Assembly (NCBI GenBank): GCA_024641505.1
Contig: JAHECY010000004.1
Span: forward strand, 37,133 to 101,132
DNA length: 64,000 nt
Source of the DNA: Gammaproteobacteria bacterium
GTDB lineage: Bacteria; Pseudomonadota; Gammaproteobacteria; SG8-11
Direction of reading: 5' to 3'
A program made the translations under genes and the position numbers. Below the pieces are notes generated by a model. It was given only the letters and a program-made list of their open reading frames with translations. It had not been told where the DNA came from and made no database searches. This document shows, piece after piece, positions 45,185 to 52,801 of the stretch (positions are counted from its first letter, which is position 1; the number at the start of each line of letters is the position of its first letter).

Positions 45185-45787
45185 ATGCAGTTTCGTCAAA
45201 TGTTCGCGGTTGTAGTCATCGGGTGGCTGGTCACCATGGGCGGCTCCGCCGAGGCGCAGCCCCGGCTGCGACCGGATGCCTGGGCCCATTCCATCGTGGG
45301 TGCGCAACTCCGAAATTGGTTTCAGGTGGATAAACTTTTGTATCGCAGTGCGCAGCCGGATACGGAAGGCATGGCTGAGGTCGCGGCGATGGGTGTTCAT
45401 ACCGTTATCAATCTCCGGGAGTACCACAGTGATGATGGCGAAGCGCAAGGTTTGGATTTGACGCTGGTACGAATTCCAATGAATGCGGCCAAGATTCGGG
45501 ATGAGGACGTGATCCATGCTTTGCGCTTGATTAAAGAAGCGACGGCTCCGGTGCTGGTGCACTGTTGGCATGGGTCGGATCGAACCGGTGTGGTGATCGC
45601 CATGTATCGATTGGTCTTCCAGGGATGGACGCGGGCACAAGCGATTGATGAATTGGTCGACGGAGATTATGGCTACCATGCTATATATGGGAATATCACC
45701 GCCTATTTGAACGCGGTGGATATCAATAGCATCTCGAAAAGCGTGGGTGTCGCCGAGGGGGTTGGGGGTCACCTTAATCAGCCATAG
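45185..45787 (+). CDS. Exported Cys-based (CX5R) dual-specificity phosphatase
   Basis: Signal peptide (AEA-Q), LYRSAQP, VINLR, HCWHGSDRTG. Confidence 0.87.
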   Translation: MQFRQMFAVVVIGWLVTMGGSAEAQPRLRPDAWAHSIVGAQLRNWFQVDKLLYRSAQPDTEGMAEVAAMGVHTVINLREYHSDDGEAQGLDLTLVRIPMNAAKIRDEDVIHALRLIKEATAPVLVHCWHGSDRTGVVIAMYRLVFQGWTRAQAIDELVDGDYGYHAIYGNITAYLNAVDINSISKSVGVAEGVGGHLNQP

Positions 45788-45891
45788 CCTTCTCTATGGG
45801 GGTATAAGTCTATCACTTATGAATAGTTGATCATTTTCGTAGGTAATCATAGTATTAGTGCATCATTGAATGCTAATACGGAGGCTTTGCC

Positions 45892-46344
45892 ATGACTGGT
45901 TTTATTCCCGGGTTTCCCCATGATGGTATCGTGACCATCAATCGCGTTATCTTGAAACCGCAATACAGTGTCGAGGATCTCGAAGAGCGTGTCGCCATGT
46001 TGTGCGAGAATGTAAAGACCTATCACTCCGGGACCGGATTTGTCGGGGGTTTCGTGGCTTTGAACAGTGGCCAGATATCCAATGAAGGCAGCACGACGGG
46101 GCAGGTCGTTGAGAGCTCTCTCAAAGGTAAGGAGGCGTTGATTATCACCTTCTGGCGTTCCTTTGAAGAGCATGAAGAATCGCATCGTTCGCGCACGTTC
46201 CAGCCCTTGTTTAAAGACGTTCTTGAATTGTGCGAAAATGGTAATGAAGAAATCGCCTATAACATGCTCTGGTCCGGGGCAGCCTATAATGACGAGCAGG
46301 CCAGAGCGGCCCAGGACGCCAAGGAACGTTACAAAGTCGCATAA
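45892..46344 (+). CDS. Ferredoxin-like (ABM/SOR-type) fold protein; half-size SOR-like
   Basis: RBS GGAGG; VTINRV, MLC, GFVGG, TFWRSFEEHEESH, GNEEIAY. Confidence 0.7.
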   Translation: MTGFIPGFPHDGIVTINRVILKPQYSVEDLEERVAMLCENVKTYHSGTGFVGGFVALNSGQISNEGSTTGQVVESSLKGKEALIITFWRSFEEHEESHRSRTFQPLFKDVLELCENGNEEIAYNMLWSGAAYNDEQARAAQDAKERYKVA

Positions 46345-46459
46345 GTTGCCGATCCGTTTGCGCCAACTGCCGGTCGCTGTTGGGCCGGCAGCGCATCGGC
46401 GGGCGGCATCTTGGCGCCACTGAACTGTCAATCCACCATGCTGGTGTCGAGGAACAGCG

Positions 46460-46951
46460 ATGACGTTACACCGGTTGCGGTCAATGCACCTGGCGCTAAG
46501 CGCGATATGTCTGGCTTTGACGCTGTTGCCGGGATGCGCTAAAACGCCTGATGCGGAAAAAATCGCAGCGTTGATCGATGGCATGGCTGCGCATGCGCGG
46601 GCGCACGAGGTCAGTGCGTTTTTCAAGGCGGTAGCCGACGATTTTGTCGGTGAACCCGTTGCCAGCCCCGCTATCAGCAAAGCGCAGCTGAAAGGACTGT
46701 TAGCGTACTATTTTCTGCGGCACAAAAATATCAATATCGTGATCGTCCATCAGGACATTACCGTTGACGGTGATCAAGCCCGGGTGGAACTCCAGGCGCT
46801 GACCACGGGTTCCCGGACTGTCATACCGGAACAGGCGCAATATTTTTTGATTCAAGGGAAGCTGGCAAAGCGCGCCAACACGTGGTGGGTCACCCATGCG
46901 CGCTGGGAGAAAATGCTGGCACCGCAAAACAACGAACGCGGCGACAATTAA
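46460..46951 (+). CDS. NTF2/SnoaL-like lipoprotein
   Basis: Lipobox LLPG-C; helix-helix start, ADDF, ITVDGDQARV, W-V..A-W terminal strand. Confidence 0.65.
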   Translation: MTLHRLRSMHLALSAICLALTLLPGCAKTPDAEKIAALIDGMAAHARAHEVSAFFKAVADDFVGEPVASPAISKAQLKGLLAYYFLRHKNINIVIVHQDITVDGDQARVELQALTTGSRTVIPEQAQYFLIQGKLAKRANTWWVTHARWEKMLAPQNNERGDN

Positions 46952-48010: not shown

Positions 48011-49228
48011 ATGACAAGTCTTGTACCACCACATGGAGGGGGGGACCTAAAGCCATTGTTGCTGGCAGGTGCTGCGTTGCAGGCGGAAATCAAGCGTGCG
48101 CAAACGTTAACCCGAATCAATGTAAGTTCCCGTGAAGCCGGCGACATCATTATGATGGGTATCGGCGGATTTACTCCCCTCACCGGTTTCATGACCCGTG
48201 CCGACTGGCAGGGTGTGTGCGACGGCATGAAGATGACCAGCGGGTTATTCTGGCCGATCCCCATTACCCTGTCCACGGACAATGCTGCGGCCGACGGCAT
48301 CAAAGCCGGGCAGGATATTGCTCTCTATGACGATGAGCGCGACGAGATTCTGGCCACCATGACGGTGTCGGAGAAGTACGCTATCGACAAGGCCCATGAA
48401 TGCATGCAGGTGTATAAGACCGTCGATCTTGAACATCCCGGCGTCAAGATGGTTATGGAGCAAGGCGACGTCAACCTGGCCGGTAGCGTCAAAGTGTTGT
48501 CCCTGGGTGGTTTCCCGGAAGAATACGGCAAGCAGTTTTTGACCCCCGCGGAAACACGCGCGGAGTTCACCAAACGCGGCTGGAGTACCATCGCGGCGTT
48601 TCAGACGCGTAATCCGATGCACCGCTCACATGAGTACCTGGCGAAGATCGCCATCGAAATTTGCGACGGGGTCCTGATCCACTCGCTCCTGGGGAAACTC
48701 AAGCCCGGTGATATTCCCGCGGAAACCCGCACTCGGGCCATCGGTACCTTGATAGAAAAATATTTCGTGAATAACACGGTAATTCAGGCGGGCTATCCGC
48801 TGGACATGCGCTATGCGGGTCCCCGTGAGGCATTGCTGCACGCCCTGTTTCGTCAGAACTACGGCTGCTCGCACTTGATCGTGGGCCGTGACCACGCAGG
48901 TGTCGGTGACTACTACGGTCCCTTCGACGCCCATCATATTTTTGATGAAATCCCCGCGGACGCACTGGTAACCAAGCCGCTGAAAATCGACTGGACCTTC
49001 TGGTGCCACAAATGTGGTGGCATGGCTTCCATGAAAACCTGTCCCCACGAAGCCGCGGACCGTTTGTTGCTCTCAGGCACCAAGTTGCGTAAGTCCCTGT
49101 CGGAAGGCACTGAAGTTCCCGACAATTTTAGTCGGCCGGAAGTGCTGGAAATCCTGCGGGAATATTACGGTAGCCTGAAAGATGACGAGAAGGTGGAAGT
49201 GAAATTATCTGGTCATTCAGCCAAGTAA
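48011..49228 (+). CDS. sat: Sulfate adenylyltransferase
   Basis: [41 protein letters not shown]. Confidence 0.98.
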
Positions 49229-49299
49229 ATCTGGTAAGCTTACCCGCTGATAAAAAACAAATAATAGAAATTGAACGTAATAGAAGACGGAGAAAAGAA

Positions 49300-49767
49300 A
49301 TGCCAACATATGTGCGCACTGATAAATGTGATGGCTGCAAGGGCCAGGATAAAACGGCCTGCATGTACATCTGCCCCCACGACCTGATGCGTCTGGACAA
49401 AGACGGTTCGGAAACCGGTCACGCCATGAAGGCCTATAACCAGGAGCCGGAACAATGCTGGGAATGTTATTCCTGCGTTAAGATCTGCCCCCAGCAAGCG
49501 ATCGAATGCCGGCACTACGCGGACATCGTGCCGCTGGGCGGCTCGGTACAGCCTCTGCGCGGTACTGATTCCATTATGTGGACGATCAAGTTCCGCAATG
49601 GCACCATGAAACGCTTCAAGTTCCCCATTCGCACCACTCCCGAAGGCTCCATTGATCCTTACGGCGGCAAGGAAACCGCGGACATCAAGAAGATTTCCGA
49701 TAACGGCTTTTTTACCAAGCAGAACGGTTACCGCGCGGGCAATCCCAGCGAGTTGATCAAAGTCTAA
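49300..49767 (+). CDS. aprB: Adenylylsulfate reductase beta subunit
   Basis: CDGC...CMYICP and CWECYSCVKICP clusters; FKFPIRTTPEGS. Confidence 0.97.
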   Translation: MPTYVRTDKCDGCKGQDKTACMYICPHDLMRLDKDGSETGHAMKAYNQEPEQCWECYSCVKICPQQAIECRHYADIVPLGGSVQPLRGTDSIMWTIKFRNGTMKRFKFPIRTTPEGSIDPYGGKETADIKKISDNGFFTKQNGYRAGNPSELIKV

Positions 49768-49807
49768 AGGTTTCAGGAATTTAAATTAGAACAACGAGGT
49801 AAGAACA

Positions 49808-51808
49808 ATGGCAGGAGAATTTGGTAAACCTGAGGTGGTCCAGGAAGAAGTGGACATCCTCATTATTGGCGGCGGTATGGCGGCGTGTGGCGCGGCCTAT
49901 GAAATTGGTCCGTGGATCAAGGCGTCAGGGCAGAACATCAAGGTCAAGCTGGTGGATAAAGCAGCCATGGACCGTTCCGGCGCGGTAGCGCAAGGTTTGT
50001 CCGCGATCAACACCTATATCGGTACCGAACAGGACCCGGCGGATTATGCCCGCATGGTGTCCAATGACCTGATGGGTATCACCCGTGACGATCTGGCCTA
50101 TGACCTGGGCCGCCACGTGGACGAGTCCGTGCATCTGTTTGAAGAATGGGGTCTGCCCATTTGGAAGACTGACGAAAACGGCGAACGTCACGACGGTTCC
50201 AAGGGCCTGCCCGCGCTGAAAGACGGTGGCAAGCCGGTACGTTCCGGTAAATGGCAGATCATGATCAACGGTGAATCCTATAAGTGGATCGTTGCCGAAG
50301 CGGCCAAGAAAGCTCTGGGCACCGACAACATTCAGGAACGTATTTTCATCGTCAAGCTGGTCAACGACAAGAACGACAAGAACCGCATCGCCGGTGCTGT
50401 TGGCTTCTCAACACGTGACCATAAGGTGTTTGTATACAAGTTCAAGGCTTGCCTGCTGGTGTGCGGTGGTTGCGTCAACATTTTCCGTCCGCGTTCCGTA
50501 GGTGAAGGTACCGGTCGTGCCTGGTACCCGGTATGGAATGCTGGTTCTACCTATGCGATGGCCGCTGAAGCCGGCGCCGAGCTGACCATGATGGAAAACC
50601 GTTTCGTTCCCGCCCGTTTCAAGGACGGTTACGGCCCGGTAGGCGCTTGGTTCCTGCTGTTTAAAGCCAAGGCCACCAATGCGTTTGGTGAAGTTTACAT
50701 GGACAAGAACAAGGAGTTGTTAAATGACTATCCTCCTTATGGCCAGGCTGCAGTGCCGGCGTCTTGCCTGCGTAATCACCTGATGCTCAAGGAAATGAAG
50801 GAAGGTCGCGGTCCCATCTATATGGATACCGTTACTGCGTTGGCTGCATTGCGTGAAACCTTGTCGGCTCGCGAAGTGAAGCATCTGGAAGCCGAGGCCT
50901 GGGAAGACTTTCTGGACATGTGTATCGGTCAGTGCGGTATCTGGGTTGGTGAAAACATCGAGCCGGAGAAGAAGAACTCCGAATTGATGCCCACCGAGCC
51001 CTACCTGTTGGGTTCGCACTCCGGTTGCTGCGGTATCTGGGTATCCGGCCCAACCGACCTTGGTGCACCCACCAGCGAAGCGCTGCCTGGCGCCCCCGCG
51101 CACCTGCCCAAGGGTTGGAATTGGGGCTATCGCTCCATGACCACCGTACAGGGTCTGTTCACCGCCGCCGACGGCGTAGGCGCTTCCGGTCACAAGTTCT
51201 CGTCCGGTTCCCATGCGGAAGGTCGTATGTGTGCCAAGTCCATGGTCAAGTTCGTGATGGACAACAAGGATCACAAGCCCGAGCTTGATACGTCGGTAGA
51301 CCAATTGGTGGCTGATATTTATCAACCGGTGCGGACTTATCTCGAGCACAAGGATTACACCACTGCGATTGATGTCAACCCGAACTACATCACGCCCAAG
51401 ATGCTGCAGTTCCGCTTGCAGAAGATCATGGACGAGTACGTCGCCGGTGTTGCCACCTACTACACCACCAACGCCAAGATGCTGGCCCTGGCGGAAGAAA
51501 AGCTGGAAATGTTGAAGGAAGACGCCCTCAAGATGCGCGCCAAGGACCTGCATGAATTGCTGCGGGCCTGGGAAAACTACCATCGCATCCTGACCGCGGA
51601 AGCCCATATGAAGCACATTCAGTTCCGTGAAGAATCCCGTTATCCGGGTTTCTACTACCGCGCCGATAAGAACTTTGTCGATGAGAAAAACTGGAAGTGT
51701 TTCGTTAACTCGATCTATGACAAGACCACCCATAAGTGGACCGTGTTCAAGCGCGCCCACGTGGATCTGGTTGACAAGTCCAAGCTGTTCAAGGCGGCAG
51801 CGCACTAA
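49808..51808 (+). CDS. aprA: Adenylylsulfate reductase alpha subunit
   Basis: IIGGGMAACG, RSGAVAQGLSAINTY, GKWQIMINGESYK, GHKFSSGS, EESRYPG. Confidence 0.98.
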   Translation: MAGEFGKPEVVQEEVDILIIGGGMAACGAAYEIGPWIKASGQNIKVKLVDKAAMDRSGAVAQGLSAINTYIGTEQDPADYARMVSNDLMGITRDDLAYDLGRHVDESVHLFEEWGLPIWKTDENGERHDGSKGLPALKDGGKPVRSGKWQIMINGESYKWIVAEAAKKALGTDNIQERIFIVKLVNDKNDKNRIAGAVGFSTRDHKVFVYKFKACLLVCGGCVNIFRPRSVGEGTGRAWYPVWNAGSTYAMAAEAGAELTMMENRFVPARFKDGYGPVGAWFLLFKAKATNAFGEVYMDKNKELLNDYPPYGQAAVPASCLRNHLMLKEMKEGRGPIYMDTVTALAALRETLSAREVKHLEAEAWEDFLDMCIGQCGIWVGENIEPEKKNSELMPTEPYLLGSHSGCCGIWVSGPTDLGAPTSEALPGAPAHLPKGWNWGYRSMTTVQGLFTAADGVGASGHKFSSGSHAEGRMCAKSMVKFVMDNKDHKPELDTSVDQLVADIYQPVRTYLEHKDYTTAIDVNPNYITPKMLQFRLQKIMDEYVAGVATYYTTNAKMLALAEEKLEMLKEDALKMRAKDLHELLRAWENYHRILTAEAHMKHIQFREESRYPGFYYRADKNFVDEKNWKCFVNSIYDKTTHKWTVFKRAHVDLVDKSKLFKAAAH

Positions 51809-51831
51809 GATCGAGCGTTAGCAGTACACAG

Positions 51832-51861
51832 AAGTCCGGGCACGCAGGTGCCCGGACTTTT
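51832..51861 (+). terminator. Terminator after aprA
   Basis: AAGTCCGGGCAC-gcag-GTGCCCGGACTT-TT. Confidence 0.8.
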
Positions 51862-51907
51862 GCTTTCAATGCAGGCAAGAAATTATTGAGTTACCCGGAG
51901 TCGTGTT

Positions 51908-52801
51908 ATGAACAAGAAACCTGAAATCCCCGTCAAGAGTCCGATTGAGCCGCGTCAGCTGGAATTGACCAGCCGTATTCAATTCAATTGCCATCCGGGT
52001 ATCTCCTGTTTCAACGCCTGCTGCCGTCAGGCGGACATTACCCTGGCACCCTATGATATTCTTCGTCTCAAGCAACGTCTGGGCATGACGTCCACGGAAT
52101 TCCTTAAAGCCCATACCGTTCCTTTCGAAATTGATGCACATGGCACGCCCGGTGTGAAAATGCGCACCCGAGACCATGAGCCGGTCTGCTTGTTCATGGA
52201 TGAGAAAAGCGGTTGCACCGTCTATGAGGATCGGCCGTCGGCCTGTCGTTATTACCCTGTGGCCTTGATGTCGTCGCGTCGTTCTGACGAGTACACCGAC
52301 CGCCAGCATTACGCGCTGGTGCAGGAAGAGCATTGCATGGGACACAAGGAAGCCCGCGAAATCACCGTCACCGATTACCGCAAGGAGCAGCAAGTCGAGC
52401 AATTTGACGAGTTGAACCGTGAATACTATCAATTAATCCTGAAGAAGAAATCCGCAGGGCCGGCGATCGGCAAGCCGACACCCACCAGTTTTCAGTTTTT
52501 TTTCCTGGCCTGTTACGATATTGACCGCTTCCGTGAATTTCTCGCCTCGTCCAGTTTCCGTAACGTGTATCGGATGGATGATGCTGAGTTCGACGTCTTG
52601 TTGACCGATGACCTGGCACGCTTGAAATTCGCGTATCGTTTGCTGCGGCAAGTGTTGTTTGGCGAAATGACCATCCCCATGATTGACGATATATTTGAAA
52701 AACGCATGGCAGAGCGCGGTGAGATCCTTGCCAAGCGGAAGGAAATGGAAATCGAGATCGCCAAGCAGCAAGAACCGATTGAACGCTTCATCGACGATTA
52801 A
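51908..52801 (+). CDS. YkgJ / CxxCxxCC family cysteine-cluster protein
   Basis: FNCHPGISCFNACC, CLFM...GCTVYEDRPSACRYYP, HCMG. Confidence 0.87.
   Translation: MNKKPEIPVKSPIEPRQLELTSRIQFNCHPGISCFNACCRQADITLAPYDILRLKQRLGMTSTEFLKAHTVPFEIDAHGTPGVKMRTRDHEPVCLFMDEKSGCTVYEDRPSACRYYPVALMSSRRSDEYTDRQHYALVQEEHCMGHKEAREITVTDYRKEQQVEQFDELNREYYQLILKKKSAGPAIGKPTPTSFQFFFLACYDIDRFREFLASSSFRNVYRMDDAEFDVLLTDDLARLKFAYRLLRQVLFGEMTIPMIDDIFEKRMAERGEILAKRKEMEIEIAKQQEPIERFIDD

Follow-up and report, generated by a model that had tools for sequence, protein, structure and literature searches.

Half-size proteins aligning with the catalytic residues of sulfur oxygenase reductase in sulfur-oxidising bacteria

The locus and the protein family

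The window analysed here is a stretch of 64,000 nucleotides from a member of the Gammaproteobacteria (assembly GCA_024641505.1, contig JAHECY010000004.1, positions 37,133 to 101,132). A gene on its forward strand at positions 45892–46344, recognised from its open reading frame (ORF), its homologues and a structural model, encodes a single-domain protein of 150 amino acids with the dimeric alpha+beta barrel (ABM) fold, which resembles sulfur oxygenase reductase (SOR). The ORF list and the reading of the DNA agree on an ATG start and 150 codons, and a ribosome-binding site, GGAGG, can be read directly from the forward strand at 45880–45884, 8 bases 5' of the ATG. The protein lacks a signal peptide. 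Located 1.7 kb downstream are sat, aprB and aprA (48011–51808), which are followed by a gene for a CxxCxxCC-domain protein (48011–52801 for the four genes, forward strand) and constitute the organism's branch from sulfite to sulfate. The genes soxZ and dsrA were found on other contigs of the same genome, so that the host, earlier taken for a Sox/Apr organism, is a sulfur oxidiser of the Sox/Apr/Dsr type.

A preliminary description of the gene had listed motifs reminiscent of SOR, and all of them are present in the translation at the positions given there: V14-T15-I16-N17, C38, G49-F50-V51-G52, T86-F87-W88, H94-x3-H98, C114 and G117-x-x-E120-x-x-Y123. The codons of the key residues were verified on the DNA (C38, tgc, 46003–46005; H94, cat, 46171–46173; H98, cat, 46183–46185; C114, tgc, 46231–46233; E120, gaa, 46249–46251). 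The spacing of 56 residues from C38 to H94 and of 21 residues between H98 and E120 was likewise reproduced. The SOR positions used for comparison (Cys31, His86, His90 and Glu114) agree with PMC7398979, according to which the iron is bound by His86, His90 and Glu114, Cys31 is essential and mutation of Cys101 or Cys104 lowers the activity about tenfold.

Among 401 genomes drawn evenly from the class, 13 are SOR-positive, and these supplied 12 SOR genes for the comparison. Alignment of 43 family members with these 12 SORs (hhalign) yielded a probability of 92.4%, an E-value of 5.2e-7 (P-value the same) and a score of 50.1 over 107 columns at 25% identity. It pairs N17, C38, GF, W88, H94, H98, C114 and E120 with the SOR residues Asn, Cys31, GF, Trp, His86, His90, Cys101 and Glu114, respectively. 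Since the alignment of the two profiles at this E-value puts C38, H94, H98 and E120 on the four catalytic residues of SOR, the motif pattern is beyond chance, and the motif observation in 45892–46344 is confirmed as real.

An exhaustive search of 1.84 billion representatives (50% identity) returned 161 matches at E ≤ 0.001, many of them fragmentary; none of the 150 best listed is of SOR-like length (about 300 amino acids). Residue conservation was counted in these 150 representatives, using only the sequences that cover the respective column. Asn17 (45940–45942) in strand 1, which hhalign places on the Asn that is invariant in the 'AIN' motif of SOR, is found in 59 of 66 representatives. Cys38 in helix 1, at the position of the essential Cys31, is kept in 70 of 75. 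His94-x3-His98 (46171–46185) in helix 2 fall on the iron ligands His86 and His90 by both hhalign and hmmalign and are kept in 77 and 75 of 82 representatives, respectively. Cys114, which aligns with the non-essential Cys101, occurs in 77 of 88 and is replaced by Ala or Val in divergent members. Glu120 in the last core strand, placed on the iron ligand Glu114 by hhalign and by the alignment of the family profile to PDB entry 6m35, is present in 83 of 88. Conservation of C38, H94, H98 and E120, which the preliminary description had singled out for checking, is thus seen in most representatives. All four are kept in 15 of the 19 representatives that cover all four positions, the exceptions being the divergent lineages P0146, P0208 and P0262 and a frameshifted tail (P0225).

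The gene family is large, and its conservation is tight, similar to that of Sat and AprBA. A word-indexed search found homologues at E ≤ 0.01 in 4369 clusters (90% identity) among 4389 candidates, and the best 120 clusters share 76–89% identity with the 150-amino-acid protein at lengths of 147–155 amino acids. A search with one genome per species gave 599 matching stretches, 569 of which encode a relative. The comparisons of loci and taxa below are based on the top 80 of these 569 loci (73–85% identity). The 161 matches mentioned above include a second subfamily of about 125–137 amino acids and 32–40% identity, which keeps the Cys, the His-x3-His and the Glu. Fused or full-length forms were sought among proteins of 264–2000 amino acids, where a single match (P0121, 305 amino acids) and no fusion was found. 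P0121 was rejected as a full-length form, as its tail is unrelated read-through sequence from a run-on gene call. The ESM Atlas returned only the family's own clusters and one ABM cluster (score 0.90).

In the source databases the clusters are named 'hypothetical protein' or 'ligand-binding protein SH3' and none has a precomputed Pfam domain; the expectation that automated annotation would leave the family without a functional name was borne out. Neither Pfam nor NCBIfam holds a model dedicated to it. A search of full-text literature turned up no paper on a half-size SOR homologue, and PMC12998232 names Sor only to set it aside.

Relation to SOR and to other ABM proteins

In a Pfam scan of the window protein at E ≤ 10, no family other than SOR came up (PF07682, E 0.0038; 16.6 bits, with the cut-off at 25). 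The match spans residues 15–119 on profile positions 5–104 of 300, which differs from the SOR subunit of about 300 amino acids with two fused ferredoxin-like halves. SOR was also the sole match in NCBIfam (NF047630, E 0.0053; 15.8 bits, with the cut-off at 400), and the best sequence match in the PDB was SOR 6m35 (E 0.053). When a profile of 21 family members was compared with the PDB, SORs made up the first 9 of 13 matches (E 0.006–0.07). Scanned individually, 9 of the 21 members matched Pfam SOR and 4 matched Pfam ABM (PF03992) at E ≤ 1. In core members SOR is the top or only Pfam match at 13–22 bits, below the threshold, and the second subfamily leans to ABM and af470-like families. The divergent member P0165 exceeds both cut-offs (SOR 28.2 bits, ABM 35.3 bits) and is the only one above that for ABM. 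The window protein has no match to PF03992 at E ≤ 10.

A control profile, built in the same way as that for SOR from 24 generic ABM proteins of 21 related genomes, aligned with the family at a probability of 93.2% (E 2.9e-7, score 44.4, 91 columns, 15% identity). Compared to the alignment with SOR, the score is lower, the columns are fewer and the identity is lower. A further difference lies in an additional beta-hairpin that follows core strand 2 and precedes core strand 3 (residues 58–80, 46063–46131; DSSP strands 61–63 and 72–74 in the model). This stretch aligns with the N-terminal half of SOR with one two-residue gap, whereas in the alignment with the generic ABM proteins, which are without the hairpin, it is mostly gap. 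In an alignment to the family hidden Markov model (hmmalign), all 12 SORs show both His residues, and none of the 24 generic ABM proteins does. The generic ABM profile itself found only the C-terminal half of SOR (41 columns, 83%).

The AlphaFold2 model of the protein, computed with 43 sequences, has a pLDDT of 90.1 and a pTM of 0.80. It shows a ferredoxin-like beta-alpha-beta-beta-alpha-beta core with the extra hairpin (61–74) and a C-terminal helix (residues 134–149, 46291–46341). The best Foldseek matches in the PDB are ABM proteins, namely FasU (E 1.9e-6), TT1380, IsdI (rank 4) and SnoaB; SOR 2cb2 follows at rank 39 (E 1.2e-4). Over both structure searches, RslO4 is a further ABM protein among the best matches. 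Foldseek and VIA-align confirm a dimeric alpha+beta barrel (ABM) fold without singling out SOR, and structure was therefore dropped as support for a link to SOR. A better structural match to heme-degrading ABM proteins, which the preliminary description had named as evidence against a SOR-like protein, is seen by Foldseek rank and not by Z.

A homodimer, in line with the oligomer presumed earlier, was predicted with an ipSAE of 0.80 in each of three runs, compared to 0.00 for the best control. Of 30 proteins whose structures were solved as pairs, 20 attain the score mark used, as does 1 of 23 whose structures were solved as single chains. The runs gave 233–241 contacts, at least 87% of them in common, with a partner pLDDT of 85. 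In the dimer model, strand 50–57 packs on residues 122–131 of the partner, and the predicted interface (residues 119–134, 136–137, 140–141 and 144) includes the C-terminal helix. This type-1 packing of strand 2 on strand 4 is that of ABM homodimers (PMC4835899), and the passing score may merely reflect likeness to solved ABM dimers, which are common among structures. Such a homodimer would rebuild the barrel of one SOR subunit, with two putative sites.

With generic ABM proteins (PF03992; SnoaB 3kg0, TT1380 1iuj, YgiN 1r6y) the family has in common the ferredoxin-like core of about 100 residues and the predicted strand 2–strand 4 homodimer, in addition to the profile match. Unlike them, it adds an N-terminal arm, the hairpin insertion and the C-terminal helix, and carries Cys, His-x3-His and Glu, a set found in none of the 24 ABM proteins tested. 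SOR (EC 1.13.11.55; PF07682, NF047630; PDB 2cb2, 6m35, 6qjc, 6qpa, 7x9w, 9rdn) belongs to the same superfamily fold. It shares with the family the profile homology of its N-terminal half over 107 columns, the equivalents of Asn, Cys31, Trp, both His, Glu and Cys101, the hairpin insertion between strands 2 and 3, the lack of a signal peptide and sulfur-oxidising hosts. Unlike SOR (about 300–310 amino acids), the family proteins are without the C-terminal domain and score under the curated cut-offs. Their barrel needs a homodimer and would hold two putative sites, while that of SOR holds one.

Based on the sub-threshold scores, the equal match to the ABM profile and a fold closer to plain ABM proteins, we conclude that the protein belongs to a separate single-domain family inside the ABM superfamily and is not a member of the SOR family. 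By residue pattern and shared insertion, the family is nearest to the N-terminal half of SOR. Of the relation to SOR put forward in the preliminary description, the single domain akin to the N-terminal catalytic half, with an aligned and conserved Cys and 2-His-1-Glu set, has held. A link specific to SOR has not, as it is drawn from sequence and is no stronger than that to generic ABM proteins.

Distribution and possible function

The family was counted in the 401 genomes at E ≤ 1e-8 and found in 73 of them, of which about 55 carry the main type, 16 the second subfamily only and 2 fragments; both types occur together in four genomes. SoxZ is present in 68 of the 73 carriers, AprB in 56 and DsrA in 65. 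At least one of the three was found in 72 carriers, the exception being one genome (G338) of 93% completeness that has none of them. Overall, SoxZ was detected in 194 of 401 genomes (one genome flagged as unpublished included) and AprB in 112 of the 400 scored. The corresponding numbers for the 328 non-carriers are 126 for SoxZ and 56 of 327 scored for AprB, and DsrA was found in 59 of 129 Sox- or Apr-positive non-carriers tested. As related genomes are not independent, these counts are given without a significance level. The expected restriction of homologues to sulfur oxidisers is largely seen: the family is nearly confined to them and enriched in those of the Dsr type, without being universal there. 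Judged by their record titles, the top 80 loci all stem from Gamma- or Betaproteobacteria of sulfur-oxidiser type, among them Thioalkalivibrio, Sedimenticola, Thiohalomonas, Thiogranum, Thiobacillus, Sulfuricella, Chromatiaceae and Candidatus Thiodiazotropha. Two genomes of 1.1 Mb retain the family.

Full-length SOR was found in 13 of the 401 genomes. Since 8 of these also carry the half-size family, the latter is no stand-in for SOR. The window's own genome has no SOR above the threshold. As a separate observation, the sample contains a second, divergent clade of full-length SORs (L090–L094 in genomes G165, G173, G275, G019 and G215, and one in G057). Its members match Pfam SOR at E of about 1e-60, share 31–33% identity with canonical bacterial SORs and keep the Cys, both His, the Cys-x-x-Cys pair and the Glu.

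We tentatively propose that the protein is a cytoplasmic, homodimeric ABM-fold enzyme, putatively iron-dependent and acting on sulfane sulfur. Two 150-amino-acid chains would pair via strands 2 and 4 into a barrel like that formed by the two fused halves of a SOR subunit. His94, His98 and Glu120 would bind a mononuclear non-heme iron, as suggested by their alignment with the SOR ligands, and Cys38 would hold the sulfane sulfur of the substrate, which could be a persulfide, a polysulfide or S0. The enzyme would yield sulfite, with or without sulfide, as SOR or persulfide dioxygenase does, and would work in mesophilic sulfur oxidisers next to their Dsr/Apr/Sox machinery. Persulfide dioxygenase (ETHE1/PDO), a small cytoplasmic enzyme with a mononuclear non-heme iron in a 2-His-1-carboxylate site, converts sulfane sulfur to sulfite and provides a functional analogy for such a role. 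Its metallo-beta-lactamase fold is unrelated, and no sequence relation to it was seen in any search.

Known SORs are large two-domain enzymes of 24 subunits, mainly from thermoacidophilic archaea and a few bacteria. The half-size family, which keeps the catalytic residues of SOR, is far commoner (73 versus 13 of the 401 genomes) and was detected in the genomes of at least 569 species. Should the family prove to be enzymatic, it would represent a widespread cytoplasmic step of sulfur oxidation that is absent from current pathway schemes and metagenome annotation, and it would illustrate how SOR could have evolved from a homodimer. With residues kept at the positions of the SOR iron ligands and key Cys, the family is a good candidate for a new sulfur enzyme. 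The proposed function lends itself to direct testing, given a small protein that is predicted to be cytoplasmic and for which four point mutants suggest themselves.

A more far-reaching version, possible although somewhat doubtful, would regard the family as a minimal, unfused SOR. It would then be a homodimeric or higher-order non-heme-iron enzyme that oxidises or disproportionates sulfane sulfur in the cytoplasm of mesophilic Dsr/Apr/Sox oxidisers, reduced-genome lineages included. It would also serve as a phage-borne auxiliary gene for sulfur metabolism and resemble a one-domain ancestor that may have given rise to SOR through duplication and fusion. Should it function in anaerobes, this would mean SOR-like chemistry without O2.

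Several results weigh against the proposed sulfane-sulfur enzyme. The SOR scores of the window protein miss both curated thresholds, the generic ABM profile is as good a match to the family as SOR is, and the predicted fold is closer to plain ABM proteins than to SOR by Foldseek and VIA-align. Of the Cys101-x-x-Cys104 pair of SOR only Cys101 has a counterpart (C114), the second Cys being absent, and the His residues are lost in the three divergent lineages P0146, P0208 and P0262. SOR works as a hollow sphere of 24 subunits, and there is no sign of such an assembly here, where the model is one of a dimer. DsrA occurs in 59 genomes that do not have the family and is missing from 8 of the 73 carriers, so that the family is not a requirement of Dsr and not bound to it. 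Most of the gene neighbourhood is not conserved across the 80 related loci. A strictly O2-dependent reaction is doubtful because several carriers, namely Thiohalomonas denitrificans, Sedimenticola and Chromatiaceae, are presumably denitrifiers or anoxygenic phototrophs, with which it fits badly.

This last point would suit a non-catalytic handler of sulfur or metal, which we consider rather unlikely. Cys38 would then act as a persulfide relay like TusA, DsrE or DsrC, or the protein would be an iron or sulfide sensor, a store or a chaperone for the Dsr/Apr pathway. The association with Dsr, Apr and Sox genomes, the DsrC-family sulfur-relay gene of a phage that carries the family (see below) and the 73–85% identity among the top loci, which suits a protein with several partners, are all in line with such a role. 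It is opposed by the complete 2-His-1-Glu set conserved along with the Cys, which is the catalytic combination in SOR (PMC7398979), and by the lack of a conserved neighbour or fusion partner that would indicate a relay.

Less probable still is an ordinary ABM enzyme, i.e. a cofactor-independent oxygenase, isomerase or cyclase for an organic small molecule, whose likeness to SOR would be superfamily heritage or convergence. Its case is made by the best structural matches (SnoaB, RslO4, FasU and other ABM proteins), by the alignment with the generic ABM profile and by the four of 21 members that match Pfam ABM, one of them above the cut-off. The His pair absent from all 24 generic ABM proteins, the coincidence and conservation of the four SOR catalytic positions and the hairpin common to family and SOR argue against it, as do a distribution that tracks sulfur oxidation (72 of 73 carriers) and the company of a DsrC-family gene in the phage.

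A heme-degrading or heme-binding protein of the IsdG/HmuQ type (IsdG/IsdI/HmuQ; NCBIfam NF053649, NF009838, NF009841) is highly improbable: fold, homodimer and strand-1 Asn are shared and IsdI/IsdG structures rank high by Foldseek (ranks 4, 10, 14 and 17; 18–21% identity), but the 50 best matches by Z (VIA-align) include no chain of IsdG or IsdI, no heme-uptake or heme-related genes lie near the gene in the window, and of the IsdG-type catalytic triad (Asn6, Trp66 and His76; PMC4835899) only the Asn is kept, since in the ABM alignment headed by the HmuQ/IsdG-type protein L095 (L109 being another of this type) the presumed Trp of the triad and the presumed His ligand of the heme are matched by E96 and L106 of the window protein.

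Gene neighbourhood, phage copy and minor features

The gene lies between a gene at 45185–45787 and a lipoprotein-like ORF at 46460–46951, both on the forward strand. The former encodes a secreted protein of 200 amino acids whose fold is that of dual-specificity phosphatases and which bears a C-x5-R motif (HCWHGSDRTG). There are weak matches, below threshold, to the sulfur-transferase family TIGR01244 (E 5.5e-7) and to the N-terminal part of Blh (E 8e-6), a bifunctional sulfur transferase/dioxygenase. The ORF downstream (163 amino acids, lipoprotein-like N-terminus) has only a weak match to alanine-zipper lipoproteins (E 0.001) and recurs in 2 of the 80 related loci.

None of the upstream genes of the window, including that at 45185–45787, recurs beside the family across the 80 loci. 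The commonest neighbour is a gene for a DegP/HtrA-like serine protease, upstream on the same strand in 17 loci. Genes for Hsp20-like and DnaJ/CbpA-like proteins were observed further upstream in 8 and 7 loci, respectively, and together these neighbours may point to a stress-gene neighbourhood. The gene sat is located downstream in 8 loci, directly so in six; aprB is present in 4 loci. A conserved operon was rejected on these grounds, and the unconserved neighbourhood indicates that the gene behaves as a free-standing unit.

A copy with 72% identity (L119) was found in a 257-kb IMG/VR record of a T4-like phage (G410; CheckV completeness 78%). It is surrounded by genes for a dCTP deaminase, parts of a DNA polymerase, a thymidylate kinase and HNH and homing endonucleases. 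The record also features a T4-type major capsid gene (150 bits) and a gene for a DsrC-family protein of 97 amino acids ending in TGCV (L124, 87 bits). The position which we take to be that of the second Cys in bona fide DsrC appears to be Ser in the phage protein, which may, judging by its sequence, be of the TusE type. DsrC-type genes are known auxiliary sulfur genes of phages. The INPHARED phage collection gave no match to the family. A second IMG/VR match (L120, 31% identity) was not counted as phage-borne, as it sits among genes of the sugar or lipopolysaccharide type.

Contigs with short pieces of relatives, X5 (664 bases) and X6, were found in two metatranscriptome studies, and on X5 there is also a 209-base segment identical to part of the upstream gene. 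None of the RNA contigs covers the window copy itself. As RNA libraries can hold DNA, these pieces are a weak hint of expression.

A scan for promoters and terminators around the gene gave nothing above chance. A 7-bp inverted repeat (CTGCCGG ... CCGGCAG, 46368–46391, forward strand) lies 24 bases past the stop codon; it is without a T-run and was not called in the terminator scan. On the reverse strand, an ORF of 277 amino acids at 45847–46680 is longer than the real gene and was rejected as a shadow ORF. Gene calling by the longest ORF would pick it over the real gene, and in our own ORF picking comparable antisense ORFs took the place of the family gene at over 20 of the 80 loci.

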